This document shows, piece by piece, positions 10,287 to 32,000 of a stretch of DNA of 32,000 nt. The stretch lies in assembly GCA_041659405.1 (NCBI GenBank), contig JBAZYK010000012.1, forward strand, positions 1-32,000, in the 5' to 3' direction. The position numbers and the translations under genes were made by a program. Under the pieces are notes generated by a model, which was not told where the DNA came from, ran no database searches, and saw only the letters and a program-made list of their open reading frames with translations. Within the stretch, counting starts at the first letter, position 1, and each line of letters starts with the position of its first letter. The DNA comes from Candidatus Altimarinota bacterium. GTDB lineage: Bacteria > Patescibacteriota > Gracilibacteria > UBA1369.

Positions 10287-10355
10287 ACGAATAAATTTAA
10301 AGAAGAGCCGCTCAATATTCTATCGATAGCTCCAACAAAAAACAAGCTGCCACCC

Positions 10356-10387
10356 AACCTTTGAGGTTCCCTACAACCTCAAAGGTT
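10356..10387 (-). terminator. 13-bp perfect inverted repeat between the DUF3307 gene and leuS (possible terminator/processing hairpin)
   Basis: aacctttgaggtt (10356-10368) / aacctcaaaggtt (10375-10387) with a 6-nt loop; the right arm overlaps the stop codon at 10386-10388. On the minus strand a T6 run follows only after 13 nt, so the geometry is not canonical. Confidence 0.4.
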
Positions 10388-10940
10388 AAACGCGGCTTAA
10401 AAGGAAAAAATAGAAAATTGAAAAGGCTATAAAACGTATCAACATCGCTACATAATCAAATTCCATATTGGTATCCTGTTCTTTTTGGCGATGAAATTGA
10501 AATTTCAAAATTGAATAGAAAAAAGTCACAACAACACTAAAAATCCAGTAAATCATCATACCTACATTGGCATAAACCGGGATTTGGCTTTTCGCAGTTT
10601 CCGCTCCGCCAAACTCTTCCAGAACAAACGCGCCCAGTAATATCACAATCAAATGCAATTCCTGATCCGCCAAAAAAATCTTCACATATCTTTTATCTCC
10701 TTTTTCAAAACGAATTTTTAGTGAATCGATTAAGAAATGAGAAATTGCAATAACCGTTACTACAATTGGAAATTGGGGTTTGGATAAAAACGGAAAAAGC
10801 AGTAATAAACTTGTCACCCAATGAATAAAAACGTGCATGAAGACACCTTGCCAGTGCTTTTTCTTCCAGGTAACCAGTTTGTTTGGTTGGAAGACAAAAT
10901 CCGCAAGCAGATGGGCCAGAAGTAAATAAAGTAGAATCAT
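10386..10940 (-). CDS. DUF3307 family membrane protein
   Basis: The N-terminal LLAHLLADFVFQP motif (HxxxDFxxQ) is typical of DUF3307, with a second H-rich segment (ISHFLIDSLK) and multiple TM helices. ATG at 10940; the ORF-track TTG at 10949 is an alternative start. Confidence 0.75.
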   Translation of the reverse strand: MILLYLLLAHLLADFVFQPNKLVTWKKKHWQGVFMHVFIHWVTSLLLLFPFLSKPQFPIVVTVIAISHFLIDSLKIRFEKGDKRYVKIFLADQELHLIVILLGAFVLEEFGGAETAKSQIPVYANVGMMIYWIFSVVVTFFYSILKFQFHRQKEQDTNMEFDYVAMLIRFIAFSIFYFFLLSRV

Positions 10941-10972: not shown

Positions 10973-11416
10973 TTAATCGGATTTAAGGTTAATTTTGAGT
11001 CGTTTCAGAAATTCACTGCTGATGCGGCTGGCCATATTAGGGTTGGAAGCCACCAGCTTAATAAAGTCGTCTTTTCGTAAAACGAAAACTTCGCTTTCTT
11101 CCATGGCCTGCGCCGTAGCATTGCGGGGTTTCTCGGAAATAATGGCCATTTCTCCAAAAAAATCATTATTACTTAAAGTTGCAACGTCAACCTCTTCATC
11201 CGGGGTTGGAGCTTCATGGAAAATGCGCACTACGCCTCTTTTAATAATAAACACGGAATCTCCGGGATCATTTTCACGGAAGATAACCTGCTTGGCTGGA
11301 AAATATTGAAGCGTGATTTGTTTGATGATCTCGCGATGATCTTCTTCGTTAAGTTCTTCCAGTAAAGGAAACTTCTTTAATATTGGTAAAATTGAGATTG
11401 TTGATTCTTCTGTCAT
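10973..11416 (-). CDS. standalone cyclic nucleotide-binding (CAP_ED) domain protein
   Basis: The cNMP-binding signature is FGEMAIISEKPRNATAQA, with an upstream beta-roll (VIFRENDPGDSVFIIKRGVV). Start taken at ATG 11416 (MTEESTIS...) because the ORF-track extension to 11521 runs through a consensus promoter. It lies 23 nt upstream of the DUF3307 gene. Confidence 0.85.
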   Translation of the reverse strand: MTEESTISILPILKKFPLLEELNEEDHREIIKQITLQYFPAKQVIFRENDPGDSVFIIKRGVVRIFHEAPTPDEEVDVATLSNNDFFGEMAIISEKPRNATAQAMEESEVFVLRKDDFIKLVASNPNMASRISSEFLKRLKINLKSD

Positions 11417-11446
11417 TTTTGAAGTGATTAAATAGTAAATCTTCAA

Positions 11447-11474
11447 ATTATAACACAATCCCAAATAAATGCAA
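11447..11474 (-). promoter_or_regulatory. sigma70-type promoter with extended -10 for the cNMP-binding/DUF3307 operon
   Basis: On the minus strand: TTGCAT (11474-11469), 16-nt spacer ending in TGT, TATAAT (11452-11447). Confidence 0.45.
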
Positions 11475-11508
11475 GTATTTAGACAGTATTGGTCTTGGAA
11501 TAAAGGTA

Positions 11509-11537
11509 TTGACATTTCCAATAGAATGTTTTAGAAT
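11509..11537 (+). promoter_or_regulatory. near-consensus sigma70 promoter for the 97-aa gene
   Basis: TTGACA (11509-11514), 17-nt spacer, TAGAAT (11532-11537); sits 42 nt upstream of the ATG at 11579. Confidence 0.45.
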
Positions 11538-17381: not shown

Positions 17382-17768
17382 ATGAATATTGCAGACCTAA
17401 AAAAAGCCTTCTTGAAAATCCCGGCCATCAAGCTGGTATATCTTTTTGGTTCGCAAGCTACAGGCAAAGCAGGACCATTAAGCGACCATGATTTTGCTTT
17501 TTATCTTGAAGAAAAAAATCCCAAGAAAAGATTTGAGCTAAGACTAAAACTTTATGGGATTTTAAGTTCCCATCTTAAAACAGACAATATTGATGTTGTG
17601 ATTCTTAACGATACCGATGGACCCGAACTTAAATATGCAATTATTACAGAAGGTAAACTTATTTATAGCAAAGAACCTTACAATATTATGGTTGAACCAC
17701 GAATTCTTAACGAATATTTTGACTTCAGGGAAGGCCTTTTAAGAAATAAAATAATTAAAATCGCATGA
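17382..17768 (+). CDS. mntA: MntA-type nucleotidyltransferase antitoxin (type VII TA)
   Basis: 128 aa with the GSX10DXD minimal-NTase motif (GSQATGKAGPLSDHD). It overlaps the downstream HepT gene by 4 bp (ATGA). Confidence 0.9.
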   Translation: MNIADLKKAFLKIPAIKLVYLFGSQATGKAGPLSDHDFAFYLEEKNPKKRFELRLKLYGILSSHLKTDNIDVVILNDTDGPELKYAIITEGKLIYSKEPYNIMVEPRILNEYFDFREGLLRNKIIKIA

Positions 17769-18184
17769 CCGCAGCGACAACAATTCAAAATAAAATCAGT
17801 TACTTGAAGAAAATCCTTAAAATAATTAAGGGATTTAAAAAATATTCCCTGACAATAATTGAAGAGGATTTATTGGTAAAAGGAGCCGTAGAACGTTACC
17901 TCTATCTTCTCTGCCAGGCTTCAATCGATTTAGCTGAGGCCGTAATTACTTACAAGCATCTGCGCAAACCAACAACATACAAAGAAACTTTTGAAATTCT
18001 GTCCGAGGAAAATATTATTACACCTAAATTGCGGGAAAAACTTATCAGTATGGTCGGTTTTAGAAATATAGTTGCTCACGATTATGTAAAGATAGACTAC
18101 AAAATCGCCTATGAAATCATTCATGAAAAGCTAAAAGACATTGAAGATTTTATTAAAAAAATTGCCATAAAACTTAATGTTTAG
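17765..18184 (+). CDS. hepT: HepT/DUF86 HEPN-domain RNase toxin
   Basis: 139 aa with the Rx4HD HEPN motif (RNIVAHD), translationally coupled to mntA. Confidence 0.9.
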   Translation: MTAATTIQNKISYLKKILKIIKGFKKYSLTIIEEDLLVKGAVERYLYLLCQASIDLAEAVITYKHLRKPTTYKETFEILSEENIITPKLREKLISMVGFRNIVAHDYVKIDYKIAYEIIHEKLKDIEDFIKKIAIKLNV

Positions 18185-20160: not shown

Positions 20161-20967
20161 TTACTCTTTCGCAACCGGACCATTTCCTTTTTTCTTGAGC
20201 ATAAAGAGCAAAAGGGCTCCTGCAACTACCATGGCTAAAGACAGAATTTGTCCCTCGGTAAAATATTTCAAAATATAGCCGATTTGAACATCCGGCTCAC
20301 GCGTAAACTCAATCGCAAAACGAAAAATTCCATAAAAAATCAGAAAAATTCCGGTCACCACGCCGGTTCTTTTTGTCTTTTTGCTAACAAAATAAACAAT
20401 CATAAATAAAACCAAACCTTCAAAAAAAGATTCAAAAAGTTGAGATGGATAACGACAATTTCCCGGATCATTTGGAAAATGCAGACAAATTTTTTGGGCC
20501 AAGGCGGAACTACCGGCGATCCTGCCATAAAGTTCGCCATTGATAAAATTGCCAAGTCTTCCAAGTAAAAGCCCAATTGGCGCGATTGCAGTCACCGCGT
20601 CACTCATTCCTAAAAGTTTCACTTTATATTTTTTGCTCATAATCCAAAGGCCCAGGCACACGCCCAAAAGTCCACCATGAAAAGACATGCCACCTTCCCA
20701 AACCGCCAGAATTTTAAGCGGGTTTTGGAAATAATAAGGCAAATTATAAAAAAGAATATAGCCAAGTCTTCCACCCAAAAGTACTCCCAAAATTATCACA
20801 ATCAACATGTTGTCGATTTGCGTTTCACTTAAGTTCATTTTTTTAGCGATTTTGGAGTTGTGCAGCCAAAAATAGCCAATCAAAAAGCCAAGAGAATACA
20901 TCAATCCATACCAATGAACCGCCAGCGGCCCGATGTTAAACAGGATCGGATTAAAATACCAGGGCAT
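20161..20967 (-). CDS. lgt: prolipoprotein diacylglyceryl transferase
   Basis: 268 aa with Lgt signatures HWYGLMYSLGFL, GGRLGY, SFHGGLLG and GRLGNFINGELYGR. Confidence 0.95.
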   Translation of the reverse strand: MPWYFNPILFNIGPLAVHWYGLMYSLGFLIGYFWLHNSKIAKKMNLSETQIDNMLIVIILGVLLGGRLGYILFYNLPYYFQNPLKILAVWEGGMSFHGGLLGVCLGLWIMSKKYKVKLLGMSDAVTAIAPIGLLLGRLGNFINGELYGRIAGSSALAQKICLHFPNDPGNCRYPSQLFESFFEGLVLFMIVYFVSKKTKRTGVVTGIFLIFYGIFRFAIEFTREPDVQIGYILKYFTEGQILSLAMVVAGALLLFMLKKKGNGPVAKE

Positions 20968-21108
20968 ATAAATTAGTTAATGAGGATGCGTAATTCCTTG
21001 GGTATTGTACGGGAAAATTCACCAAAGCCAAACTGAAAAATGAATATAATTGAACATAGGTATATAATAAACAATGTTTTGCCTCGATCACTCACATAAC
21101 CAAAAAAA

Positions 21109-21714
21109 ATGATTTATCTGGAACTACTGGGGTTGGTTTTATTGGTCAATATTGCTCCCGCGTTTGTCCCTCCAACTTGGACTATTCTGGTTTATTTTAT
21201 TGTTAAACATAATCTTTATTTGCCCTTGGTTGTTGTTTGCGGCGTAGCTGCAGCCACTCTTGGACGATTCATTTTGTCCAAATATATTGGCATAATCAGC
21301 CATTCACTTTTTAATGAAGAACAAATTGAAAACATTGGCTATATTGGCAAACGTCTGGGCAAAACCAAAAAAGCGAATTTCTTTTTTACTTTTTTATATT
21401 CATTAACTCCGCTTTCTACTACGGCGCTTTTCGTGGCTGCAGGAATTGCGAAAATCAGAATGGATATGGTTTTATTGGGATTTTTCTTAGGAAGAGTTGT
21501 AAGTTACACCGTTTTAGCTACATCAGCCAGAGCTTTATCAAGTAATATGACTTCAGCTGATGGCGGCGGGTTGACCTGGGGGAGTATAGTGAAGATTTTA
21601 CTCGCGGCTATCGTATTTTTGTTTTTTATTTTTATTGATTGGAAGGCTTTATTGGAACACAAGAAAATCCGCATAAAATGGCACATCTGGCGCTGGAGCA
21701 AGAAAAAAGATTAA
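21109..21714 (+). CDS. polytopic membrane protein, possibly DedA/VTT-like
   Basis: 201 aa with about 5 TM helices. The N-terminal LVNIAPAFVPPTWTILVYF weakly resembles the DedA/YqaA re-entrant motif; family assignment is tentative. Confidence 0.6.
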   Translation: MIYLELLGLVLLVNIAPAFVPPTWTILVYFIVKHNLYLPLVVVCGVAAATLGRFILSKYIGIISHSLFNEEQIENIGYIGKRLGKTKKANFFFTFLYSLTPLSTTALFVAAGIAKIRMDMVLLGFFLGRVVSYTVLATSARALSSNMTSADGGGLTWGSIVKILLAAIVFLFFIFIDWKALLEHKKIRIKWHIWRWSKKKD

Positions 21715-21741
21715 ACAAGGAATTTTGCCGCAAGTCGGGTC

Positions 21742-22401
21742 TTACAGAAAGTGAAAACTTCCTACGATCTGTTGAAAGTATGCGTTTGGATCAGGCCACA
21801 ACTCTCTTTTTAAGATCTCGAAAATTTCCTGATTTTTCATGATTATTGCCATTTCCGTATTGCTATAAACTGGCTTCCCGTCCTTTTCATCAACAGCTAC
21901 CGGGTCTTTTAAATAAAGCAGCGTCGTCCCATCCCGTTTTTCCGTTTTAAGAATTGTCATTGGTGGCAAAGTTCCTCTTTGTTTATTTTGCCTTTTAAGC
22001 CAATCGTAAACATCTTTTGCCGCAGTTTCATTTGCTGAAATATTGATTAGCCAAGGGCCATCGGTGCCTTTATTTGAAAAGCCTATAGTTTTAGGGCCAT
22101 CTTCCAATAAATCCAAATTATTCGGATACAGAAGACTATATTGTTTGCTACGATCGGTATAACTGTTCAATTTTGAATTATAATTTTTTGGAATGATAGT
22201 TTGATTTTCGGGAATTTGGGCTTCAGTCTGGGTTAAAACTTGAGTTTGAGAAGTTGGAACCAAAGCCGTAGTTGGAGTTGACGATGTATTATCTACCGCC
22301 GTTTTTTGTGGAGGTAAGTTTAGCAAAATAATCCAAATACCGGTCATTAAAACAAGCACTAAGGTGAAAACGAAATATTTATTTTTCATATATTGTTTCA
22401 T
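21742..22401 (-). CDS. membrane-anchored extracytoplasmic protein, hypothetical
   Basis: 219 aa with an N-terminal TM anchor (YFVFTLVLVLMTGIWIILL), a T/Q/S-rich linker and then a globular domain. Confidence 0.65.
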   Translation of the reverse strand: MKQYMKNKYFVFTLVLVLMTGIWIILLNLPPQKTAVDNTSSTPTTALVPTSQTQVLTQTEAQIPENQTIIPKNYNSKLNSYTDRSKQYSLLYPNNLDLLEDGPKTIGFSNKGTDGPWLINISANETAAKDVYDWLKRQNKQRGTLPPMTILKTEKRDGTTLLYLKDPVAVDEKDGKPVYSNTEMAIIMKNQEIFEILKRELWPDPNAYFQQIVGSFHFL

Positions 22402-22470
22402 GGTTATTAAATAAAAATTATTTTTTTAGACGTGTAAGTTTTCGGCACAATTATATTCTTTTTAGGGAGT

Positions 22471-22495
22471 GGGGCGCCAGACTTGCTGGCGCCCC
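22471..22495 (-). terminator. GC-rich hairpin downstream of the island gene (terminator-like, no U-tract)
   Basis: ggggcgccag-acttg-ctggcgcccc is a perfect 10-bp G+C stem 66 nt after the TGA stop at 22562-22564. No T-run follows on the minus strand. Confidence 0.45.
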
Positions 22496-22561
22496 GATTG
22501 GGAAGGATGTTCGGAGGGATCGCATCGGGTGATCAGGTTGCCCTGCCACGCCGATTGGTGA

Positions 22562-23194
22562 TCAACCGCCGGTGATCTGGTACACGGTGTACTTTTGTTG
22601 CCCATTGATCGTGACCATCTTGAGGAAGGCGGCGACCGTTTGGCAGTGTATGCGGACCGTCTTGTCGAGCTTGTAGTTGCTGTCGATCCAGCAGATGTTG
22701 CCGCCGATGTTGGACGACACGATGGCCGTGTGAGGGCCCGGGAGGTTCATCTGAACGACGTTCCCGGGTTGCGCGTTCCAGATGCTGCCCATGTTCTGGA
22801 CTTTGCTGCTGCCGCACCAGTACCAGCCGGTTTCGCCAGGGCAGGTCGCCGGGATCGTGATTGTCCCCTTCGAGGCATCGCTGACGACTTTGCGAGCCCA
22901 GTTCTTGCAGTTCAGGCCGACGTATTTGCCGTTGTCGGCCTTGGCCCGGTTCAGGATGGTGTTGTTCCTCGACCACTGGCCGAGGGCCTTCCACCACTGC
23001 GCCCACCACGTCAGGGCGTCCTCGTTTTCGCCGATTGACGAGTCGTCCTCCACATCGTCCTGCGCATCGTCCTGCGCGTTGGTCGTGTCCGAGCCGAGAA
23101 GCTCCTCTTCGGACGGCGCAATGCAGCCGAAGCTCACCACGCTGATGCCGAAGGCCAGAGCCACGATCAGACACAACTTCAGAAACGTTTTCAT
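22562..23194 (-). CDS. CHAP / NlpC-P60-like papain-fold amidase lipoprotein (putative peptidoglycan hydrolase)
   Basis: Start at ATG 23194 gives the signal MKTFLKLCLIVALAFGISVVSFGC with a lipobox, preceded by an SD (GAAGG, 6 nt upstream). An acidic linker (DDAQDDVEDDSS) follows. Candidate catalytic residues are Cys in GLNCKNWARKVV, His in GNVVQMNLPGPHTAIVSS and a polar residue in ICWIDSNY, in CHAP-domain order. Confidence 0.7.
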   Translation of the reverse strand: MKTFLKLCLIVALAFGISVVSFGCIAPSEEELLGSDTTNAQDDAQDDVEDDSSIGENEDALTWWAQWWKALGQWSRNNTILNRAKADNGKYVGLNCKNWARKVVSDASKGTITIPATCPGETGWYWCGSSKVQNMGSIWNAQPGNVVQMNLPGPHTAIVSSNIGGNICWIDSNYKLDKTVRIHCQTVAAFLKMVTINGQQKYTVYQITGG

Positions 23195-23447
23195 ACCGTA
23201 CCTTCTTTCAATGATCAATCCAGTTGGGCTATTTGCCCACTATCATGGACCCCAATGTTCATGACGCCCCGACATTAGCAATCCAGTCATTAAATTTTTC
23301 TAAACTGAATCTGAAATAATCATGAAAGTTGAAACTACGCGTGAAAAAATTTGCCAAACTATTAAACCCCCGCAATTCACCGCAAGATGATTGACTTTTT
23401 AAGTTAAAAGCGCTTAAATACGCACTCAACCAACTCAAAAAAAACAC

Positions 23448-23744
23448 ATGCTCGGAGGAAATTTAGAGAATGAATCAGAAGTTACTCTACATGCCAAAAT
23501 ATTTACCGGCCCAAAAAAATGCAAGAAATGGGATGATGAAGTTTGGGGGGTAATTGACCAACTGCAGGCCTCTGGTCATGTAATTAACTATGAGGGTTTT
23601 GATGAAACGGGCGAAGTATTTTGTGTAACAGTGAAGATTTGTGAAGAGGTTAGGGCAATTTTGGCCAAAACCGATATCATTTTTTCGATCACTCCACAAT
23701 TCGGTCGTTTTCATGGTATTCCACCGCAAAATAAACAACTATAA
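23448..23744 (+). CDS. hypothetical protein
   Basis: 98-aa ORF with balanced, soluble-like composition and no recognisable motif. The overlapping antisense ORF looks less protein-like. Confidence 0.4.
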   Translation: MLGGNLENESEVTLHAKIFTGPKKCKKWDDEVWGVIDQLQASGHVINYEGFDETGEVFCVTVKICEEVRAILAKTDIIFSITPQFGRFHGIPPQNKQL

Positions 23745-23765
23745 AATCAAATATAATCCCGCTTT

Positions 23766-24011
23766 CTAGTGCTGATTTGTTGATTTCGGAGCGGTAACCG
23801 CAGGAGCATAAGGATCAAATTCCGGCTCTTTAAAATGATCGTAAACAACCGCAACGGCAACGCCAACAGCAATCGCTATCGTCGCATAAACCTGGTATCT
23901 TGTTCCGGCATTTTCCCAATTCCATTTAGAATTGGTTATATCTTTTGATTTTGGTCGTCCTACAGGTTCTCGAACGGCTTCTTCTCCAAGTTGTTCATTT
24001 CCCAAATCCAT
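23766..24011 (-). CDS. small membrane protein, hypothetical
   Basis: 81 aa with one TM (VYATIAIAVGVAVAVVY). A promoter (TTGACT-16-TATGAT) lies upstream. Confidence 0.5.
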   Translation of the reverse strand: MDLGNEQLGEEAVREPVGRPKSKDITNSKWNWENAGTRYQVYATIAIAVGVAVAVVYDHFKEPEFDPYAPAVTAPKSTNQH

Positions 24012-24035
24012 ATTAAAAAAAGTTAAGTAGGCCCA

Positions 24036-24063
24036 ATCATAAGGATTTTATATTTTTAGTCAA
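24036..24063 (-). promoter_or_regulatory. sigma70-type promoter for the 81-aa gene
   Basis: On the minus strand: TTGACT (24063-24058), 16-nt spacer, TATGAT (24041-24036). Confidence 0.35.
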
Positions 24064-24077
24064 CTGCATCCGCCTGA

Positions 24078-25094
24078 TCATGCACTTTTCCGCCCACACC
24101 GCTCAATCAATTTCTTTTGCAAAATAGTTCGGGCAAGCCCGGAAATAGTCTTTTTATCATGACCATCTTCCAGATTTTCTTCAGGACTTAAGCCATCAGC
24201 ACGCACCATGGTGGCCGTACAATCACCATTCGTTCTAATAGTTCCAAGTGGATCTTTTTCCACGGCAACCGGCAGCACACTAAGCGTATCCAAAACCACC
24301 AGCACTTTTCCATAATCAAGTTTAGGGTGGCGCTTAGCCACTTTTTCTATGGCATTACTTAAATCCGCGCACCATTTTTGTCGATTTTCGGTATGTGCAA
24401 TTAGACCATTTTTACCGCGGGTTCCCTCAAAAAAGAACAAAACACTTTCGCAGTCCGCAAGCGTTTCAACAATTTCTATCGCAACTCTCATGATTTCACC
24501 GTCCCTGTCTTCTTTTAGATTTTTACGACTGACCAAAATCGGGTTCCTGCTGGCAATAGTTTGACCAATAACCGGCAGATTTACGTTGTCATCCTTCATG
24601 ACATACCTGAAGTTTTTCACACCCGCTTTTCGCAATAGTTCAGCCAACAAATTGGTTTCCAGCCCTCCACCTTGGTGATTTGCCAAGAAAAGATGTGGCT
24701 TCTTTGCAAATTCCTCGGGGGGTAATTCGGAATCCACAGCAACATTAACGCCCAAAAATTCCAGAGCTTTCAAAAAAAGCCCCTCAGCATCCATAATCGC
24801 GGCATTAATTTCCTGATAATTAGCTCCACGCATAACATTAGATTGAACCACCGCGCCAATCCAGCCCGCTACCAAGGCTATTTTAAAGGCTATATGGCCG
24901 CCCAATCGACTAACAACATCCTTCTTATCAAGTTCAGCATGAATGATTCGATAAAGCTCATCAATCGGCAAAGTTTGCAAATATTCCAGGTCTAAAAGAG
25001 CAGGATCCTGATCTAGCTCCGGAAGCGCTAAACTTAGAGCTGGTTCCGCAGGGACGCACTCTTCTTCCGTTGAATTTTTTAAATCGAGACCCAT
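24078..25094 (-). CDS. PlsC-family (lysophospholipid/glycerol-3-phosphate) acyltransferase-like protein
   Basis: 338 aa. Block I is LANHQGGGLE (NHx-type), block III is FFEGTRGKNG (FPEGTR-like), and there is a ~110-aa N-terminal extension. Confidence 0.65.
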   Translation of the reverse strand: MGLDLKNSTEEECVPAEPALSLALPELDQDPALLDLEYLQTLPIDELYRIIHAELDKKDVVSRLGGHIAFKIALVAGWIGAVVQSNVMRGANYQEINAAIMDAEGLFLKALEFLGVNVAVDSELPPEEFAKKPHLFLANHQGGGLETNLLAELLRKAGVKNFRYVMKDDNVNLPVIGQTIASRNPILVSRKNLKEDRDGEIMRVAIEIVETLADCESVLFFFEGTRGKNGLIAHTENRQKWCADLSNAIEKVAKRHPKLDYGKVLVVLDTLSVLPVAVEKDPLGTIRTNGDCTATMVRADGLSPEENLEDGHDKKTISGLARTILQKKLIERCGRKSA

Positions 25095-25118
25095 TAACTA
25101 TAAAACTAAAAGGCCACA

Positions 25119-25146
25119 ATAATAAGCACTTGAGACAATTTGTCAA
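25119..25146 (-). promoter_or_regulatory. sigma70-type promoter for the acyltransferase gene
   Basis: On the minus strand: TTGACA (25146-25141), 16-nt spacer, TATTAT (25124-25119). Confidence 0.35.
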
Positions 25147-25179
25147 ACTTCTTAAACCAAGGCCTTAGATTTGATGGGA

Positions 25180-25443
25180 TTATGTGTTTTTTTTGATGGA
25201 TCTCCGACCTACCAACTTCAACTTTTCTTCCCGGGAAAGATGTTTTATCCGGTTTTCTTCTTTTGAAGCCAAAGAGCGATTGCGAAATTTTTTTGAATAA
25301 ACCAGCCTAACAGGCCTGCGCGCTTTTGTGTATTTTGCGCCAAGTTTGGACTGATTATGCTCCTGAATTCTGCGCTCCAAATCAACCGTAATGCCGGTAT
25401 ACAAAGTTTCATCGGCGCACTTAAGAATGTAGAGGTAATACAT
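25180..25443 (-). CDS. GIY-YIG nuclease family protein (UPF0213/YhbQ-like)
   Basis: 87 aa. MYYLYILKCADETLYTGITVDLERRIQEHN gives the GIY...YIG-type motifs and conserved Arg/Glu of short standalone GIY-YIG proteins. Confidence 0.9.
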   Translation of the reverse strand: MYYLYILKCADETLYTGITVDLERRIQEHNQSKLGAKYTKARRPVRLVYSKKFRNRSLASKEENRIKHLSREEKLKLVGRRSIKKNT

Positions 25444-25520
25444 GATTTTGGATTTATCTATTTCTTTTATTTTAACATATCTCTAAAATAAGCCCCTAAC
25501 AAAGGTTTTTGGCAAAAAAT

Positions 25521-26042
25521 ATGGCATTATCTAAAGCTCCAGAAAAATATTTAGGATTACCGGCTGCCTTACCGGCGCCAGCGCAAGCACCAGCAGTTTC
25601 GCAGGCACCCGTAGCGACCATCAAGGCTGCTATTAGAGAAGAATTCATAAGATTTATGCTGGAAGGAATCGACGATTTTGTCCTGAATAAAAACAATGTA
25701 TTAGAGGTCGAATTTCCACCTCATATTGCCGGTAAAATAGATGAACGTACCGCCGGAATAATCAAAAGAATTGTAGATCTCCGACATTTAGTGGTTGTAG
25801 AACAAAGCGCTGGTAGGATGGTCTTACTAAAATACGCAACTTATATGCAATTAACTCAACACATTGATAGTTTCATTACAAACAGAGGATCCACAGCGGT
25901 AACATTAACTCTGGGCGATAATTCATGCTTAATCGACTGGCTTAGACAATTGAGCACAAACCTATCGTTATCAATGGTTGTAAATGGCCAAAACCCTCGC
26001 CAGATTCAAGTTATCCTAAGAAAGAAACCCGGAGTTAGGTAA
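25521..26042 (+). CDS. hypothetical protein with Ala/Pro-rich N-terminus
   Basis: 173 aa from ATG 25521 (the ORF track uses TTG 25509). The N-terminus is LPAALPAPAQAPAVSQAPVAT, followed by a globular region with no recognisable motif. Confidence 0.6.
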   Translation: MALSKAPEKYLGLPAALPAPAQAPAVSQAPVATIKAAIREEFIRFMLEGIDDFVLNKNNVLEVEFPPHIAGKIDERTAGIIKRIVDLRHLVVVEQSAGRMVLLKYATYMQLTQHIDSFITNRGSTAVTLTLGDNSCLIDWLRQLSTNLSLSMVVNGQNPRQIQVILRKKPGVR

Positions 26043-26109
26043 TTGGTTTGACTCGGATTTGAGTTTGGATTATACGTGATTACGTTTTTACAAAAATTAA
26101 TTATATTTT

Positions 26110-27507
26110 ATGGCTAACGGGTTGGAACAACATGGAACATGCGAGGAGTTAATGGAAAGTCCGCAAATAGTGGAGATTCAACGTTTAGATGAGTTAATGA
26201 AAACTCCGCAAATAGAGGAGATTCAACGTTTAGTGGCTAGAAATATAGTCTTGGCGAAGATTCTTGGCGAACAACGTACGACTCAGTCTTTTTCTACCGC
26301 CGATGAGTTGGCGAATGCATTTAAGGGAAAATTGCTGACGGCCGGAAAAACCGGTTTGGAGGCCATGGAAAAGGCAAAAATTAAATATAAAGATTTGATT
26401 GAAACAGCGGGCATTACCGATGAGGATTTGAGAAAAGTGTTTGAGATGGTTTGGGTTTACAGTCGTTTGGCCAATCCCACTGGTGAGCTTTTAGAGGAAG
26501 CAATTTCAGGAATTGAAGGAGCGGAAAAGACGGCTATTTTTGCGTCCGGACTTGGGGCTATTAATGCCGCAGTGAGGCAATTTGTGCCACCTGCCAAGGC
26601 TGACGGGGAAAAGTATGTTAAGGGCGGAAAAATTGTGGTAATTGGCAGTATTTATGGTGGAACTTACGCTCAGCTGATGAACATATGCAAAGAGACCGGC
26701 CGACAGCTTGAGTTTTTGTCGATTTCTGATTTTAAAGCGCAGGGTCTTAGTGATCATACTTCCATGGTTTTTTGCGAAACCAGCAACAATCCAACATTGA
26801 ATGTTGTTCCATTAAAACGTGTTGCGGAAGAGGCAAGACGGGTTGGGGCGGTTTCCGCTTGCGATAATACTTTTACTCCAATAACCGTGCGTCCCGTGGA
26901 AAACGGCATTGATCTTACGATTACTTCAATGACCAAATATTTTAACGGAAGAAGTGAGAGTTTGGGTGGTTGCGTTTCGGGAAACGCTGAATTAATTGGG
27001 GAATTTTCGGATCTTCAGGAAGGGCAGCGCATGCTGGGTGGCGCTATTATGGATCCGCGTGTGGCAAAAAAGTTCTTAGAGCATTTGGCAAATCTTCCGG
27101 AAAGACTTTTTAAAGCGACTCAAAATGCCAGGGGTGTTAGGGAGGTTGCTATTCGCTCCGGGTTTCGGGCAAAAACTGTTGAAGATTTTCCGGAATATTC
27201 TAGAATTAGAAATCCCGCGATTCCTGCAAGTGTGAGCAATGGCATGGTGTCTTTGTTTATGGATGATGCACAACAGGCAAGCGCTCTGGTCGACATGCTG
27301 ATTAAGGAAGGCATTGGTCATGGCGCGGTTAGCCTTGGGGCAGAGGGGACATATTATTGCATTCCGGGGCGGACAACACACTCGGAAATGCCGGAGGAAG
27401 AAATGGCGCGCGCCGGCATAACTCCCGGATTGGTGCGAATTTCCTGTGGGATTGAACCGGATCTTATTCAAAGGTTTGAAAAAGTTCTGACCGATTTTGC
27501 TAAATAA
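26110..27507 (+). CDS. Cys/Met-metabolism PLP-dependent enzyme family protein (cystathionine gamma-synthase / methionine gamma-lyase-like) with N-terminal extension
   Basis: 465 aa. Family blocks are AIFASGLGAI, IYGGTY, ETSNNPTL, CDNTFTP and the PLP-lysine block SMTKYFNGRSESLGG. A ~90-aa N-terminal extension contains a tandem 15-aa repeat. Confidence 0.8.
   Translation: MANGLEQHGTCEELMESPQIVEIQRLDELMKTPQIEEIQRLVARNIVLAKILGEQRTTQSFSTADELANAFKGKLLTAGKTGLEAMEKAKIKYKDLIETAGITDEDLRKVFEMVWVYSRLANPTGELLEEAISGIEGAEKTAIFASGLGAINAAVRQFVPPAKADGEKYVKGGKIVVIGSIYGGTYAQLMNICKETGRQLEFLSISDFKAQGLSDHTSMVFCETSNNPTLNVVPLKRVAEEARRVGAVSACDNTFTPITVRPVENGIDLTITSMTKYFNGRSESLGGCVSGNAELIGEFSDLQEGQRMLGGAIMDPRVAKKFLEHLANLPERLFKATQNARGVREVAIRSGFRAKTVEDFPEYSRIRNPAIPASVSNGMVSLFMDDAQQASALVDMLIKEGIGHGAVSLGAEGTYYCIPGRTTHSEMPEEEMARAGITPGLVRISCGIEPDLIQRFEKVLTDFAK
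26146..26235 (+). repeat. 2 x 45-bp tandem repeat inside the PLP-enzyme CDS
   Basis: gagttaatggaaagtccgcaaatagtggagattcaacgtttagat (26146-26190) and gagttaatgaaaactccgcaaatagaggagattcaacgtttagtg (26191-26235). They encode ELMESPQIVEIQRLD / ELMKTPQIEEIQRLV. Confidence 0.9.
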
Positions 27508-27510
27508 AGT

Positions 27511-27563
27511 TCCATCACGCACGAAGTGCCTATTTCTATTGCGAGCGGAGCGAGTTCCATTTT
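27511..27563. repeat. dispersed intergenic repeat, copy B
   Basis: ttccatcacgcacgaagtgcctatttctattgcgagcggagcgagttccattt starts 4 nt after the stop at 27507. It shares a 23-nt identical core with 18236-18258. Confidence 0.75.
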
Positions 27564-27652
27564 TAGTTGGGGTATGCTTAAAGCAGCTTTTAATCAGGCT
27601 CAAAATTTGCTATAATAATAAGAATCAAAAATCAGCTTATGAGCTCAAAGCC

Positions 27653-28225
27653 ATGGAAATAAAAAAAGCAAATCCGGAATATGAAATAACAAACCTTGAA
27701 AAAAAGGTGCTGGTCAATTTGTGGCTTGATGACTACGATAACATTTTTTCGGATTTTGATCCGCGCCCTTATTCTTTGCGGGAATTATCAGACGATTTTC
27801 TAAATGAAACAAAAAAAATAATCAACGAAATAACAAATGAAAATCTGGAGATAGTTTTTCTGATTCCTCAAAGCCTAAAAAACAAAACCACAGAACATAT
27901 AATCGCCACCAGGTTACACTCATACTTTAAAAAGAAAGCACACCATCAGGAGGCCGAGCAAAAAAAAGACAGAAGAAATGGCATAATACTAAGTTTAATT
28001 GGAGGAGTGCTAATGATCGGAGCGACATTTTCAGCCCAGATGGAAAACAATCAATTATTTTACAATTTTCTTCGCATTTTATTGGAACCGGCAGGTTGGT
28101 TTATGACATGGTACGGCCTTGATCACATTTTCTACATCGCAAAAGAAAAGAATCATGAGTTAAGATTCAATAAAAAAATGGCAAAAGCCGAAATCGTTTT
28201 TGACGCTTATAGCAATCGCGAATAA
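27653..28225 (+). CDS. hypothetical membrane protein (soluble N-domain + two C-terminal TM helices)
   Basis: 190 aa from ATG 27653 (MEIKKANPEYE...). The ORF-track start at 27497 merely translates the intergenic repeat. TM helices are ILSLIGGVLMIGATF and LLEPAGWFMTWYGL. Confidence 0.6.
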   Translation: MEIKKANPEYEITNLEKKVLVNLWLDDYDNIFSDFDPRPYSLRELSDDFLNETKKIINEITNENLEIVFLIPQSLKNKTTEHIIATRLHSYFKKKAHHQEAEQKKDRRNGIILSLIGGVLMIGATFSAQMENNQLFYNFLRILLEPAGWFMTWYGLDHIFYIAKEKNHELRFNKKMAKAEIVFDAYSNRE

Positions 28226-28279
28226 AAAATCATAGTTCAGACTATCGCAAGCTGGGGCTTTAGAACAGGTTATGCCGCA

Positions 28280-28654
28280 TTACTCGGTGTCCCCAATTTC
28301 AGTATATCCTCTTGCACCCCTTCTTGCGCCTCCATTTCCGCCACGGCCTATTTTTTTCTTAATATCAGCTCGCACACCTTCAACAACTTGAACCTCCTCA
28401 GGTACCTCGGGAGTACTGCCAGGGGTATGCTTCATAAGCATGGACTTTATTGGCTCAAAATCTCCACTTTTTAAAAGTTCCACCATCTTTTTCAACTCCG
28501 GCATTGTAAGTGGAGTAAATCTAAAGCTGGTTAAGGTCATATTAAGCGTGACTACATTTAAACTGCGGACATTCCTCCCTGATAAGACTGCAATAATTTC
28601 GTCAACTAATTTTTCATCAGATTCCTGTTCAGGAGCCCCAGAAACATTCTCCAT
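28280..28654 (-). CDS. hypothetical protein with C-terminal RGG-like basic tail
   Basis: 124 aa with an acidic N-terminus and the C-terminus KKKIGRGGNGGARRGARGY. ATG start, with TATAAT about 45 nt upstream. Confidence 0.55.
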   Translation of the reverse strand: MENVSGAPEQESDEKLVDEIIAVLSGRNVRSLNVVTLNMTLTSFRFTPLTMPELKKMVELLKSGDFEPIKSMLMKHTPGSTPEVPEEVQVVEGVRADIKKKIGRGGNGGARRGARGYTEIGDTE

Positions 28655-28797
28655 ATTAATTTAGATAAGGGACAATAATTGGTAAGACACTCGGTAAATT
28701 ATAAAACATTAAACGATATTTTACCAGTCGATATTCAAGGCGCGATTCAATAAATGCTGAGGATAAAGATGCTTTGAGTGCCTTTAACTAAAAGAAG

Positions 28798-29346
28798 CTA
28801 TTTTTGCCCTCCTAATAAAGCTGAGATTTGCTGTCTTAAAACATCACTTTTCCCTGCGCGTTCTTTTGCTGCTCTTAATTGATTTATTCTTTGATCTAAA
28901 TATTTTTTTAAGACAGTTACCGCATTTTGATCTTTAAGAACAAATTTAAAAAATGCAGCTTCGACCTCATCGCTCGCTCTGGGAAACTTTCGATCTTCAA
29001 AAAAGTGCAATAAGTCTTCTGATGACAATTCAGTTAAGGTATATAAAACCCCATCAACTTCTTCTGAATTTTCATGAGATCTTAACCACTGTTGGCCTTC
29101 TTCGGTTTGGAAAAAATTAGCTAATAAATACATTCGCAAATACCTGTCTTGCATATCAATTAATGCCTCTACTCCATCAGTAATAGCAGATCTATTTGGT
29201 TCTGCAGAAGCATCAAAATTTCCCAAAATTTCGTCTTGCTTAGGATCAGCATCCCATAAGGACAATCGAAATTTATCGGGGGAATTTGGATCTTCTAAGA
29301 CTATTGGTCTTTGTCTTCTTCTAATTTCATCAATATCTATTGGCAT
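28798..29346 (-). CDS. hypothetical acidic soluble protein
   Basis: 182 aa with no TM or signal and no recognisable motif. Its promoter carries the conserved upstream box. Confidence 0.65.
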   Translation of the reverse strand: MPIDIDEIRRRQRPIVLEDPNSPDKFRLSLWDADPKQDEILGNFDASAEPNRSAITDGVEALIDMQDRYLRMYLLANFFQTEEGQQWLRSHENSEEVDGVLYTLTELSSEDLLHFFEDRKFPRASDEVEAAFFKFVLKDQNAVTVLKKYLDQRINQLRAAKERAGKSDVLRQQISALLGGQK

Positions 29347-29373
29347 AAAATTAAATAAAAATTACAGGTGTTA

Positions 29374-29431
29374 AGTAAAACATAAATGCGCCATAAAGTC
29401 AAGAAACTCCTGGTGGCGCGACGTTCAAACT
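29374..29431 (-). promoter_or_regulatory. promoter (TTGACT-17-TTTACT) plus conserved upstream box, copy 1
   Basis: On the minus strand: -35 TTGACT (29402-29397) and -10 TTTACT (29379-29374), 28 nt before the ATG at 29346. The box 29398-29431, gtcaagaaactcctggtggcgcgacgttcaaact, parallels 30864-30898. Confidence 0.4.
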
Positions 29432-29442
29432 AGTCTTAGCAA

Positions 29443-30813
29443 TTAAGATGGAGAACACCCATAGTATGAATATAAATATCTTAATGCGCGTTGCGATTTA
29501 GCCAAATCGATTTGAATATTTTGAATATCCTCAATATTTCCTTCTCTATTGCTAACAAAAATCCAATTTCTTAGAGGATTTGATGTGTTTTTTTGATTAT
29601 GCAATACAATGCCCATGCAATCTAATATCTTTAGAACTAAAGCAGTAGTACTCGCGTGCCATTGCTTTTTACATAGTAAGCTCATTCTCAGTAACTGTTC
29701 AACTCTCTGTTTTATTTTTAACTGTGCATCGAGGTCGCCTTTGGCAGCAGCTTTAATATCATCTACCTGAAGGAGGTGTGGGTTATTTTGATATTTTCTA
29801 ATCAGATCTTGTTCATTTAAATCCGAACCTAAACTTAATGTAAAATCGTCTTCTGTTAAAAATACCTTAGTACCTTCAAGAACAGAATTTAACAATCTTC
29901 GTGCTGAACTTTGTACATTTTTAAGTGTTAAGTCGTCAACATATTGCTCAGTTGAACGACATCGCATCGCAATAAAACGATGATAAATATCTCCATCTTC
30001 ACCATAATGAACAGAACAATCATATCCTCCGCTGGCTAAGTATGCTGATGCGCGAAAAGCAGTATTGGCTCCTGTGATGTTTACAGAAGAATAACTTTTA
30101 ATTTTTTTTTGATTAAATAAATCCATAAGTTCAATTATCATTTCTCGAATCCACAATTCGGGGGCTTGTCGTGATGCAGATTCAACATCACTTGGACTAG
30201 AATAAAAAACTGACCTGCCGGCAGCATATTCAAGCATGGACCGGTCTAAAAATCGTCTGATGGTTGTTTCAACATAATCACTTTTTAATTTCACGCAGTC
30301 GCTATCGTTACTAATCACAATTGGATCAGATTGATTTCTTTGTTTGGCACAAGTACAAGCAATTTCAGTAAGCAAACTCCTTACATTCCCCAACGCAACA
30401 TTATCGGAAAAATGCTCTCGAAACGAATGAACTTTCAATTTAGGGAATTGGCTTTTTATTTCGGCTATTTCAGCTTCAAGAACTTGGGCGCGGGAAGAAA
30501 AATCTAATTCATCTATTTCTGGTCCGGCATTAATACAAATCAAAATTTCAAAATCAAAGCATGTCTGTTTACAATATTGTTCCAGAGTTCTTTTTAAGTT
30601 CTGCTCTTTGGCATGACATGGAATTGCTACAAATGTTCGACTACCTTCAGCAATAGGTAAACGGTTGCTAATCTCCATTATTTTTGAACATCTTGCCGAG
30701 TCGGTAGAAGCTAATTTAGCAAAGAAAAGCTCATATTCATGTTCAAAATCGAGTTTTACGCTAGGATTTGCCAAAACAGTTTCACTTAAACCTTCATAAT
30801 AAGGCTGAGACAT
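29443..30813 (-). CDS. GT-A fold (family 2-like) glycosyltransferase-like protein, soluble
   Basis: 456 aa. FVAIPCHAKEQNLKRTLEQYCKQT...ILICINAG resembles the GT2 N-terminal block. NDSD is a DXD-like motif, and GANTAFRASAYLASGGYD...GEDGDIYHRF is the GT2-like C-terminal block. An extra ~130-aa helical C-terminal region follows. There is no TM or signal peptide. Confidence 0.6.
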   Translation of the reverse strand: MSQPYYEGLSETVLANPSVKLDFEHEYELFFAKLASTDSARCSKIMEISNRLPIAEGSRTFVAIPCHAKEQNLKRTLEQYCKQTCFDFEILICINAGPEIDELDFSSRAQVLEAEIAEIKSQFPKLKVHSFREHFSDNVALGNVRSLLTEIACTCAKQRNQSDPIVISNDSDCVKLKSDYVETTIRRFLDRSMLEYAAGRSVFYSSPSDVESASRQAPELWIREMIIELMDLFNQKKIKSYSSVNITGANTAFRASAYLASGGYDCSVHYGEDGDIYHRFIAMRCRSTEQYVDDLTLKNVQSSARRLLNSVLEGTKVFLTEDDFTLSLGSDLNEQDLIRKYQNNPHLLQVDDIKAAAKGDLDAQLKIKQRVEQLLRMSLLCKKQWHASTTALVLKILDCMGIVLHNQKNTSNPLRNWIFVSNREGNIEDIQNIQIDLAKSQRALRYLYSYYGCSPS

Positions 30814-30839
30814 ATAGCTTGAAACAAATTTAAGATGCT

Positions 30840-30898
30840 AAAATAGCACATTTTATCTAATGTGTCAATGGAGCTCCACATGGCGCAATGTTCAAACT
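30840..30898 (-). promoter_or_regulatory. promoter (TTGACA-17-TATTTT) plus conserved upstream box, copy 2
   Basis: On the minus strand: -35 TTGACA (30868-30863) and -10 TATTTT (30845-30840), 27 nt before the ATG at 30813. The box 30864-30898 is gtcaatggagctccacatggcgcaatgttcaaact. Confidence 0.45.
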
Positions 30899-30975
30899 TC
30901 AACTAATTTATAAAAAAATTAGAATATTTTAATCTGCATACACTAAAATGAGCTGGAATATAAATTGATACAACC

Positions 30976-31512
30976 ATGAAAATTATTATTCCAAATGAAA
31001 TAATTGAAACCAAAATATTCTTTGTCAGGGGAAGGAAAGTCATTATGGACAAAGACTTAGCCATACTTTATGAGGTGCCTACAAAGCAACTTAATCAGGC
31101 TGTAAAAAGAAATATAAGCCGATTTCCTGAGGATTTTATGTTCCAACTCAATGAAAGTGAAGCGGGGGTTTTGGAATCTGGAATTGATTTAGTACAGGCA
31201 AACAACTTGAGGTCACAATTTGTGACCTCAAGTTACGGTGGAAGACGCTATCGTCCCTATGTTTTTACGGAACAAGGTATCGCTATGCTATCAAGTGTAT
31301 TAAAAAGCGAACGTGCTATTCAGGTCAACATCCAGATCATGAGAACTTTTATCAAATTGAGAGAAATGTTGTCGAGTAATAAGGCATTGAGGGATAGGAT
31401 TGAAAAAATAGAGAAAAAATACGACAATCGTTTCAAGATTGTCTTTAAAATGATTAAACAACTAATAGACGAAGAAAAATCGCAACAAGGGATTGGCTTT
31501 CGCCTTCAATAA
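30976..31512 (+). CDS. ORF6N domain-containing DNA-binding protein (KilA-N/Bro-N-like, phage antirepressor-type)
   Basis: 178 aa. The N-terminus IFFVRGRKVIMDKDLAILYEVPTKQLNQAVKRNISRFPEDFMFQL is the ORF6N signature, and the C-terminus is coiled-coil-like. Confidence 0.85.
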   Translation: MKIIIPNEIIETKIFFVRGRKVIMDKDLAILYEVPTKQLNQAVKRNISRFPEDFMFQLNESEAGVLESGIDLVQANNLRSQFVTSSYGGRRYRPYVFTEQGIAMLSSVLKSERAIQVNIQIMRTFIKLREMLSSNKALRDRIEKIEKKYDNRFKIVFKMIKQLIDEEKSQQGIGFRLQ

Positions 31513-31676
31513 AAAGGGCGCTTTACTTAAAACACAAAATTTATATTTTTGGAGCTCCTTGCGGGCTGCTGTGCGAGAATCGGGCTGACATCCATTTCAT
31601 CCTTGGGAATCGTCAAAGTTTTACATCCCAAATAATAAAATAGCCGCACTCTGACCGCACTTTGATTGGGATAAGG

Positions 31677-31704
31677 TTGACAAAATTGTAAAACAAGCTA
31701 GAGT
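31677..31704 (+). promoter_or_regulatory. sigma70-type promoter for the terminal partial ORF
   Basis: TTGACA (31677-31682), 16-nt spacer, TAGAGT (31699-31704). A second TATAAT at 31736-31741 lies 12 nt before the ATG. Confidence 0.3.
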
Positions 31705-31753
31705 GTCTAGCCGCTCGACGCATGTTTTATTAAGTCTATAATCAAAAATTATA

Positions 31754-32000
31754 ATGGAGGAAACAGCAGATTTAGGTAATTCCGAATTTAGAACTAAAGT
31801 TCTTCCCCAAATTTGTGGATATTTAGATATAAATATCGATGATATAGCCCAGATAAGTCCCAGAGATCTAGTTGATAAAATTCGCGATAATCTACGAAAT
31901 AAAAGAGTAAATGGGAAAGCCATTCCCAAAAAAGAGAGACTATTAGATTGGATTTTAGGACATGACATTCCAAATCCATTTAGTTTAAGACAATTTGTGG
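31754..32000 (+). CDS. hypothetical protein, 3'-truncated by the window edge
   Basis: Not in the ORF track because it has no in-window stop. Hand translation from ATG 31754 gives MEETADLGNSEFRTKVLPQICGYLDINIDDIAQISPRDLVDKIRDNLRNKRVNGKAIPKKERLLDWILGHDIPNPFSLRQFV, with no stop to base 32000. Its soluble-like composition and upstream promoters make it preferable to the antisense ORF 31621-31968. Confidence 0.45.
   Translation, partial: MEETADLGNSEFRTKVLPQICGYLDINIDDIAQISPRDLVDKIRDNLRNKRVNGKAIPKKERLLDWILGHDIPNPFSLRQFV

Follow-up and report, generated by a model that had tools for sequence, protein, structure and literature searches.

A GC-rich lipoprotein gene in a Candidatus Altimarinota genome: a predicted divergent CHAP-type hydrolase module for which recent horizontal capture is not supported

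Related systems and the gene X locus

CHAP endolysins and autolysins (PF05257), such as Ly7917, PlyGRCS, the CHAPK domain of LysK, PcsB, and LytN, have a papain-like fold that is also predicted for the product of a gene, here named gene X, in a stretch of DNA from Candidatus Altimarinota bacterium. The stretch (the window) comprises 32,000 nucleotides, positions 1 to 32,000 of contig JBAZYK010000012.1 (GenBank assembly GCA_041659405.1; GTDB lineage Bacteria, Patescibacteriota, Gracilibacteria, UBA1369). Gene X stands out by the G+C content of its third codon positions (GC3), and an earlier note on this DNA, made from the letters alone, tentatively attributed it to the capture of a single gene from a high-GC donor. 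The analysis described here does not support a recent import; judging from the sequences compared, the gene, its signals, and a downstream partner gene were probably inherited together across Peregrinibacteria. The high GC3 appears to be actively maintained.

As in CHAP domains, X has a Cys at the N-terminus of a helix and a beta strand that bears a His, followed by a strand with an acidic-x-Asn motif. However, it is only 12-18% identical to known CHAP domains and carries an extra N-terminal two-helix segment (WWK..Q..RN..I), and while the lysins are modular with a wall-binding domain, X stands alone as a lipoprotein and is always paired with a membrane-anchored partner. Autolysins that act under membrane partners include PcsB or CwlO with FtsEX, and Spr/MepS is an NlpC/P60 lipoprotein; the analogy lies in a cysteine hydrolase at the membrane surface and a linked membrane protein that could gate its activity. 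The partner of X, however, is not FtsX-like and comes without an ABC ATPase, and its interaction with X is putative. The type VI pairs Tae2/Tai2 are similar in that the gene for a small papain-like amidase is followed by that for a small exported partner. Unlike Tae2, X has its own lipoprotein signal peptide and the module is also found beside ribosomal operons; no type VI secretion genes were found near X. The X module thus recalls both the autolysins under membrane partners and the effector-immunity pairs but has no component in common with them.

With respect to composition, two other systems are comparable. The pmoCAB genes of type Ia methanotrophs have an anomalous coding composition that was ascribed to selection and not to transfer (PMC6650546). 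X resembles them as a gene set that departs from its genome in composition and codon usage and may be read as an adaptive expression trait, but its shift is far larger (GC3 +0.4 to +0.6), is directed toward the genome's rare codons, and occurs in the tiny genomes of the Candidate Phyla Radiation (CPR) together with a private Shine-Dalgarno (SD) site and leader. Classical horizontally acquired islets share with X an abrupt compositional break limited to one gene. In contrast to them, X is without mobility signatures, is syntenic and congruent in relatives, and has host-type amino acids and near-saturated synonymous sites.

Composition and inheritance of gene X

The GC-rich island (Table 1) has a G+C content of 0.592, against 0.407 across the rest of the window, and 200-nt windows range from 0.56 to 0.64 inside it and from 0.335 to 0.385 alongside. 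The 300-nt flanks are at 0.30 and 0.36. The genome here is thus at about 41% G+C and not 30%. The island contains one long open reading frame (ORF) with a sensible product, gene X, for which the gene model proposed earlier stands. Its GC3 is 0.86 (GC1 0.49, GC2 0.45); in the 33 other ORFs of the window, GC3 has a mean of 0.358, a standard deviation of 0.070, and a maximum of 0.54, which places X at z = 7.2. The abrupt island that had been noticed by hand counts is therefore confirmed by both measures. Since GC3 is high evenly from the first codon of X to the last, while its promoter (27-42% G+C) and the first 500 nt of the partner gene (35-44% G+C) are host-like, the anomaly is essentially confined to the coding sequence.

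A chimeric assembly, which the earlier note had asked to be excluded at both junctions, is ruled out: an independently assembled contig from ENA (L027) is 100% identical to positions 20976-32000 of the window, both island junctions included. Independent assemblies of at least seven other metagenomes also contain this GC-rich gene between the same flanks. Searches around the island found no tRNA gene and no convincing flanking repeats, no mobility gene or integrase was found near X in the window, and a promoter and terminator scan of the window revealed nothing marking a mobile element, as the earlier note had claimed for integrase, repeat, and tRNA. The only other GC-rich patch of the window, at 2301-3000 (up to 71% G+C), was considered as a relative of the island and rejected. 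It encodes a Gly/Ala/Asp/Pro low-complexity linker within a 719-aa secreted protein (ORF 1484-3643, plus strand), its G+C stems from codon positions 1-2, and the GC3 of that gene is only 0.34. The C-terminus of the 719-aa protein, with a Cys-rich segment, a hydrophobic helix, and RRKNR, may be a sorting signal.

Relatives of X were gathered with their DNA context from genomes and metagenomes. Seven orthologues (the window, L008, L001, L004, L009, L021, and L018, labelled Peribacteria or Peregrinibacteria where a label is given) form one clade with 44-63% protein identity and the topology ((L018,L021),((L004,L009),(L001,(L008,window)))), and the similarities of the partner genes yield the same groupings. 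A synteny comparison, proposed as a means to find relatives lacking the insert, found X with the same partner and leader in all seven lineages; the window and the Peribacteria locus L008 have one more syntenic gene in common, which is 68% identical. The promoter box, the TAnAGT hexamer, the leader hairpins H1 and H2, the SD site, and the 3' hairpin are common to all seven orthologues, whereas such elements are normally unalignable at this divergence. The amino-acid make-up is that of the host. GC1 of X (0.49) is close to the host mean (0.50) and below that of the Eisenbacteria copies (0.59), and the Lys fraction K/(K+R), at 0.76-0.79 for the copies of the window and L008, compares with 0.65 for the host and 0.32-0.35 for Eisenbacteria. 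Thus, the X protein has a low-GC amino-acid make-up and only its silent positions are GC-rich. Of the features by which islands of horizontal transfer are recognized, X has the atypical composition, whereas a discordant tree, donor-type amino acids, and mobility signatures are absent. A phage origin was rejected, as neither a relative nor the leader motif was found in IMG/VR. The broad family alignment was too divergent for scanning viral contigs.

The GC3 of X exceeds the G+C content of its host in all seven orthologues: it is 0.86 in the window (host 0.41), 0.97 in L008 (0.375), 0.86 in L001 (0.45), 0.82 in L004 (0.49), 0.80 in L009 (0.47), 0.60 in L021 (0.39), and 0.53 in L018 (0.42), while neighbours and partner at every one of the seven loci have a GC3 of 0.3-0.5. 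In a second, fully syntenic clade, GC3 at the same locus is 0.70 in L012, 0.68 in L019, and 0.37 in L013. Outside the two clades, the X family is compositionally native to its hosts, with GC3 of 0.93-0.95 for the Eisenbacteria copies in 70% G+C genomes, 0.72-0.81 for those of L022, L023, and L024 in 52-63% G+C genomes, and 0.33-0.39 for those of L025, L010, and L015 in 33-38% G+C genomes. The value of 0.97 in the most AT-rich host lies above those of the relatives sampled in 52-63% G+C genomes, which points to a directional push and not to mere retention.

Synonymous divergence was compared between the window and L008 at four-fold sites of identical residues. Identity exceeded the compositional expectation by 0.28 in X, 0.27 in the syntenic neighbour, and 0.05 in the partner, and in more distant pairs the choice of C versus G at the four-fold sites of X was at chance level. 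A two-fold-site statistic was discarded since pooled codon classes inflate its value. Because the four-fold divergence of X equals that of the neighbour, X has gained about as many silent substitutions, without drifting to the GC3 of its neighbours.

Some further observations concern individual loci. Between L004 and the strains L005 and L006, X is free of single-nucleotide polymorphisms (SNPs); the tract without SNPs, however, extends over 2.7 kb of a mosaic pattern, is not gene-specific, and is hence uninformative. In L016 (labelled Gracilibacteria; 10001-10430), the X copy is frameshifted, which is probably a sequencing error and not a pseudogene because this assembly differs from L004 by hundreds of indels. 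Two genes downstream of X in L004/L005 (11250-11550 and 12477-13250), there are a stretch of 14-21% G+C, an HTH_17 gene, and another GC-rich gene (257 aa, GC3 0.76, no Pfam match on record), which may be a separate islet or a mobile remnant.

Predicted product, partner gene, and expression signals

The product of X consists of a signal peptide with the lipobox VSFG-C24, an acidic Asp/Glu-rich linker (about residues 27-58), and a domain of the CHAP-type cysteine peptidase/amidase class (about residues 59-210). The N-terminus reads MKTFLKLCLIVALAFGISVVSFG before the lipobox Cys; all of the first four aligned proteins have G23-C24, the orthologues have LIAGC, LIPGC, or LMSGC, and the Ser at the -3 position of the window protein is atypical. 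The gene lgt (20161-20967, minus strand; PF01790, E 5e-70) is present 1.6 kb downstream of X, and X is predicted from the lipobox Cys and lgt to be a bacterial lipoprotein. An AlphaFold model of residues 59-210, made from a 112-sequence alignment, has a predicted local distance difference test score of 96.8. In Foldseek searches of PDB and of the viral structure library BFVD, CHAP domains rank at the top (probability 1.00, TM-score 0.51-0.63). The top PDB matches are all CHAP, namely Ly7917 (PDB code: 5d74; E 8e-5), PlyGRCS, Lys2972, PlyC, and LysGH15, with TM-scores of 0.51-0.60, followed by the type VI amidase Tae2 (E 0.016), and phage CHAP lysins rank first in BFVD.

Sequence profiles gave a similar result. 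The family profile matches the CHAP domains of Ly7917 (E 2e-4), PlyC, PcsB, and LytN among PDB sequences, and in the alignment to Ly7917 the His and the downstream E-x-N line up with "PHTAIV...WIDSN"; the residues of X aligned to E-x-N are D171-S-N173 (E in one orthologue). Within the X clade there is no variation at Cys96 and His155, and over 112 family members the Cys is at least 90% conserved and the His 100%. In the model, Cys96 starts helix 96-108 and His155 is in strand 153-162. The active site of CHAPK is formed by C54, H117, E134, and N136 (PMC4126393), and the spacing in X, C-59-H-16-D-x-N, is close to it. Pfam CHAP is matched weakly by 44 of the 112 family members at E<0.1 (best 8.8e-6), while the window protein has no match at the Pfam and NCBIfam thresholds. 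Since the Pfam threshold is missed, the X family is a divergent sister to PF05257 rather than a member of it as curated. Overall, X is best modelled as a membrane-tethered divergent CHAP-type peptidoglycan hydrolase, with activity and bond specificity presumed from the fold. The lipoprotein signal, acidic linker, and Cys...His...polar arrangement of CHAP/NlpC-P60 type that had been read from the sequence are thus borne out by the model, the profile, and the conserved residues, and the suggested check for papain-fold or CHAP similarity placed CHAP domains first by structure as well as by profile. A phmmer match of X to polymeric Ig receptor was rejected as chance GWYWC similarity.

An exhaustive profile search returned about 319 clusters at E<1e-3, mostly of about 150-260 aa and without annotation in that library, and the members inspected bear N-terminal signal or lipobox-like segments. 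A full-text literature search on CHAP-domain hydrolases in Patescibacteria found nothing about the X family, and the papers that other searches listed did not deal with the family or its leader. Dual coding by the overlapping frames 22533-23174 (minus), 22595-23038 (plus), and 22782-23264 (plus) was also considered; these are by-products of high GC3, as the main frame is better conserved and its synonymous sites vary freely. In L027, which comes from the same genome, the gene caller had annotated the Arg-rich alternative frame (1558-2199, corresponding to window 22533-23174, minus strand; 213 aa) and not the CHAP frame. GC3-rich genes in AT-rich genomes are open to such wrong-frame calls, and the X family is probably under-counted in protein databases.

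The partner gene encodes a protein with a PsbP-like-looking domain. Homologues with 27-50% identity lie immediately downstream of the X orthologue in L008, L001, L021, and L018, and the partners in L009, L004, L015, L010, and L023-L025 are recognizable by the motifs Y.D…YP, EW..QN, and C-terminal SF[HK]F. The window partner scores weakly against Pfam PsbP/PsbP_2 (E 0.075); among ten partners, weak matches were obtained to PF01789 in three (best 5.8e-5) and to PF18933 in two, and there was no match to PDB sequences. The earlier note had suggested that the insert displaced part of the promoter of this gene. This is unlikely because the X-partner arrangement is ancestral, with the partner conserved downstream. 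In one Patescibacteria genome (L010, 9896-11347), the CHAP-like gene and the partner form a single 483-aa ORF, either a fusion or a lost stop codon, which supports a functional link between them. In two genomes of 52-60% G+C (L023, 3460-4690; L024, 4001-5193), X and partner directly follow the S11-S4-rpoA-L17-L13-S9 operon. The two X proteins are 49% identical and the ribosomal proteins 68-78%, and therefore X evolves fast.

Table 1. Features of the gene X locus in the window.
Feature	Position	Strand	Description
Compositional island	22465..23285		X coding sequence and its structured untranslated regions; 0.59 G+C
Gene X	22562..23194	-	210-aa prolipoprotein; acidic linker and divergent CHAP-type domain (predicted); GC3 0.86
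Partner gene	21742..22401	-	219 aa; N-terminal membrane anchor; PsbP-like-looking domain; GC3 0.33, host-like
Conserved upstream box	23288..23304	-	TTTAGAAAAATTTAATG; candidate -35/UP element or regulator site
Candidate -10 hexamer	23272..23277	-	TAATGT; TAnAGT-type in orthologues; 5-6 nt upstream of H1
Leader hairpin H1	23242..23265	-	GUCAUGAACAUUGGGGUCCAUGAU; sequence kept in 7/7 orthologues
Leader hairpin H2	23226..23238	-	GGGCAAAUAGCCC; stem sequence different in every lineage, pairing always kept
Shine-Dalgarno site	23201..23205	-	GAAGG; 6 nt before ATG; GAGG-type site kept in 7/7 orthologues
3' hairpin	22471..22495	-	GGGGCGCCAG-loop-CUGGCGCCCC; candidate 3' stabiliser or atypical terminator

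The anti-SD duplex of X is the strongest of 34 ORF starts in the window (-6.4 kcal/mol), most others being near 0, and this ranking upholds the view that the SD site of X is unusual. The ORF starts of the window have A/T-rich upstream regions and almost no SD, X being the clear exception; the cold-shock gene in L027 is also without one. Upstream of the SD site lie the two leader hairpins. H1, conserved across the orthologues as GUCAUGACACAUUGGGGUGCAUGAC, occurs in one copy per locus, each time in front of X, and is predicted to lie at the 5' end of the mRNA or close to it. The candidate -10 hexamer was assigned from its conservation, while a consensus promoter scan did not call it, and the upstream box has one and the same sequence in the window, L008, and L001, with related sequences in the remaining four orthologues. 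The AUG of H1, a few nucleotides from the predicted transcription start, opens an upstream ORF of 3-15 codons in six of the seven orthologues, with the peptides MTHWGA, MTHGVP, MTH, and MAHGVT, and MNIGVHDSGQIAQLD in the window, each followed by a stop codon. In L004, the main ORF continues in the frame of this AUG, which serves as the annotated start of P0003; in L008, ATT takes its place.

Downstream of X, the arms of the 3' hairpin (22471-22480 and 22486-22495) are 10 nt long and 100% complementary, enclose a loop of 5 nt, and are not followed by a T-run. Stems of the GGGGCGCC type are conserved among the orthologues, again with no U-tract downstream. The hairpin had been described earlier as a 10-bp, all-G/C stem without a U-tract; length and missing U-tract are correct, but the stem consists of nine G:C pairs and one A:T pair. 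Neither the leader nor the 3' element matched Rfam 15 at the gathering score, with only chance-level matches at E<=10. The 3' untranslated region (UTR) of X also contains a 16-nt direct repeat, 81% identical, at 22486-22501 and 22543-22558, 57 nt apart. This degenerate copy of the hairpin flank accounts for the unusual length and the 59% G+C of the 3' UTR in this lineage.

Elsewhere in the window, 17382-18184 (plus strand) encodes a nucleotidyltransferase (MNT) and a HepT-like RNase whose genes overlap by 4 nt; the pair looks like a type VII toxin-antitoxin system. A CHASE2-adenylate/guanylate cyclase-TPR protein (3726-5852, plus strand) and a protein binding cyclic nucleotide monophosphates (10973-11521, minus strand) represent cyclic-nucleotide signalling in a small CPR genome.

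Possible explanations for the composition and their significance

The mRNAs of X fold more stably than synonymous-codon shuffles, with a mean z of -2.0 (n=16 family members); the mean of 13 control genes is -0.26 (Welch p=0.001). The folding z is negative in all seven clade members (mean -2.3), and folding stability per nucleotide is about twice that of the neighbours. These results favour, as modest evidence, selection at the mRNA level behind the high GC3.

A proposed explanation of the locus, which taken whole has about an even chance of being right, is that of a vertically inherited hydrolase-partner module with private signals, in which the GC3 of X is held by mRNA-level selection. X would be a Sec-exported, lipid-anchored peptidoglycan hydrolase from a divergent CHAP branch of the papain-like Cys-His superfamily, with an acidic linker, about 35 residues long, tethering it to the cytoplasmic membrane on the outer side. 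Together with the downstream membrane-anchored partner, which may regulate, inhibit, or position the enzyme, it would form an old two-gene cell-wall module that passes vertically within Peregrinibacteria. X would be expressed through private signals (promoter box, two-hairpin 5' leader, SD site in an SD-poor genome, and GC-rich 3' hairpin), and its synonymous positions would be kept at 80-97% G+C, or pushed there, in spite of the AT-biased background of the host. The 5'-proximal hairpin, SD site, strong 3' hairpin, and stable fold are most simply read as marks of a transcript designed for long life or tight gating, and selection for such a stably folded mRNA of a potentially self-lytic enzyme would be the most probable cause. 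It is possible, though doubtful as a specific claim, that nucleic-acid-level selection keeps X as an expression outlier with a stable or conditionally translated mRNA, perhaps for host contact or division. A more extreme version, in which the signals are tuned to expression in, or nuclease survival in, a GC-rich host, is supported by nothing here.

Other explanations start from the history of the gene. Recent capture of X from a high-GC bacterium, possibly the host, with its composition not yet ameliorated, would account for a GC3 of 0.86 in a 41% G+C genome, for the high-GC-style codons GGC, ATC, AAC, CTG, and ACG, for an SD site and a GC hairpin unlike those of neighbouring genes, and for family members native to 70% G+C Eisenbacteria and to other genomes of 52-63% G+C. 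It is nevertheless very improbable, and the earlier proposal is largely contradicted, since gene, leader, hairpin, and partner are the same in seven diverged lineages of one clade, the locus is syntenic with that of L008 with a synonymous divergence equal to that of the syntenic neighbour, and GC1 and the Lys/Arg ratio are host-like and unlike those of the Eisenbacteria copies. Moreover, mobility genes, tRNA, and flanking repeats are absent, and high-GC genomes yielded no close homologue, the best match in Eisenbacteria being 45%. X may instead go back to one ancient transfer from a GC-rich lineage into the ancestor of the clade, or to a GC-rich ancestor, and its GC3 could then have decayed passively at an unusually slow rate with no active force. 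Outgroup copies with a GC3 of 0.72-0.95 in 52-70% G+C genomes and the two clade members down to 0.53-0.60 agree with this, as do some Peribacteria genomes of 58.5% G+C (PMC4736985). Passive decay is still quite unlikely because the four-fold sites are near saturation, as diverged as those of neighbours with a GC3 of 0.32-0.37, because 0.97 in the lowest-GC host above relatives in 52-63% G+C genomes implies an increase, and because the same excess recurs in the second syntenic clade (0.68-0.70 in L012 and L019 versus 0.37 in L013).

Two active mechanisms other than mRNA-level selection may be considered. X may be a cassette that is swapped between lineages through its conserved flanks, with GC-biased gene conversion or a GC-rich allele pool keeping its G+C. 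The flanking motifs of 17-25 nt are near-identical though the proteins are only about 50% identical, the non-coding 3' UTR of the window gene is at 59% G+C, and strain comparisons reveal mosaic recombination tracts in these genomes. However, the anomaly stops at the coding sequence, with promoter and partner host-like; GC1 and the Lys/Arg ratio are unshifted, contrary to strong biased conversion; and the X tree is congruent with partner similarity, while the SNP-free L004/L005 tract is not gene-specific. This mechanism is thus unlikely. Translational optimisation, with an extremely high expression of X and a preference of these bacteria for G/C-ending codons, is improbable. In its favour, the ribosomal-protein genes of L023 and L024 are above other genes in GC3 with X at or above them, and a strong SD site with 5' and 3' hairpins recalls abundant envelope-protein genes such as E. 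coli lpp and ompA, which have comparable features. In the window genome, however, the cold-shock gene (GC3 0.36) and the S15 gene (0.39) use ordinary AT-rich codons, and the bias of X includes the G-ending four-fold codons ACG, GCG, and TCG, which is not a typical optimisation pattern.

Several points weigh against the proposed module with selection-held GC3. The GC3 is merely moderate in two clade members (0.53 and 0.60), and the 66-nt non-coding 3' UTR of the window gene, with its 59% G+C, hints at a regional and not a codon-level force, although it contains the duplicated flank of the hairpin. Per-site selection strong enough for a GC3 of 0.97 is unusual in small-population symbionts. The synonymous tests are small (n=28-57 sites), and the relationships of the hosts rest on a few linked genes and not on a species tree. 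With respect to the hydrolase itself, the window protein has no CHAP match in Pfam even at E<=10. RNAalifold found no convincing conserved helices in the coding sequences of X, and the covariation term was positive (unfavourable). Any selection would therefore concern the stability or compactness of the fold as a whole.

What is new here is a CHAP-superfamily family with its module, and a compositional outlier that is read as maintained by selection. Atypical G+C or codon usage is routinely taken as proof of recent transfer; X, an old and vertically inherited gene at z≈7, is a warning for island-calling and, if the proposed explanation is true, would provide a clear exception, found in nature, to the rule that a gene of atypical G+C is a recent horizontal transfer. 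It also offers a tractable case for asking what can keep synonymous sites of symbionts with small genomes far from mutational equilibrium. For CPR bacteria, in which almost no regulatory signals are known, it supplies a promoter and leader element that is conserved. The uncharacterized family of about 319 clusters, CHAP-like lipoproteins with a PsbP-like-looking partner, is widespread in CPR and other uncultured bacteria. The module is therefore a candidate core unit of cell-wall remodelling or of the host interface in organisms whose envelope biology is barely known.

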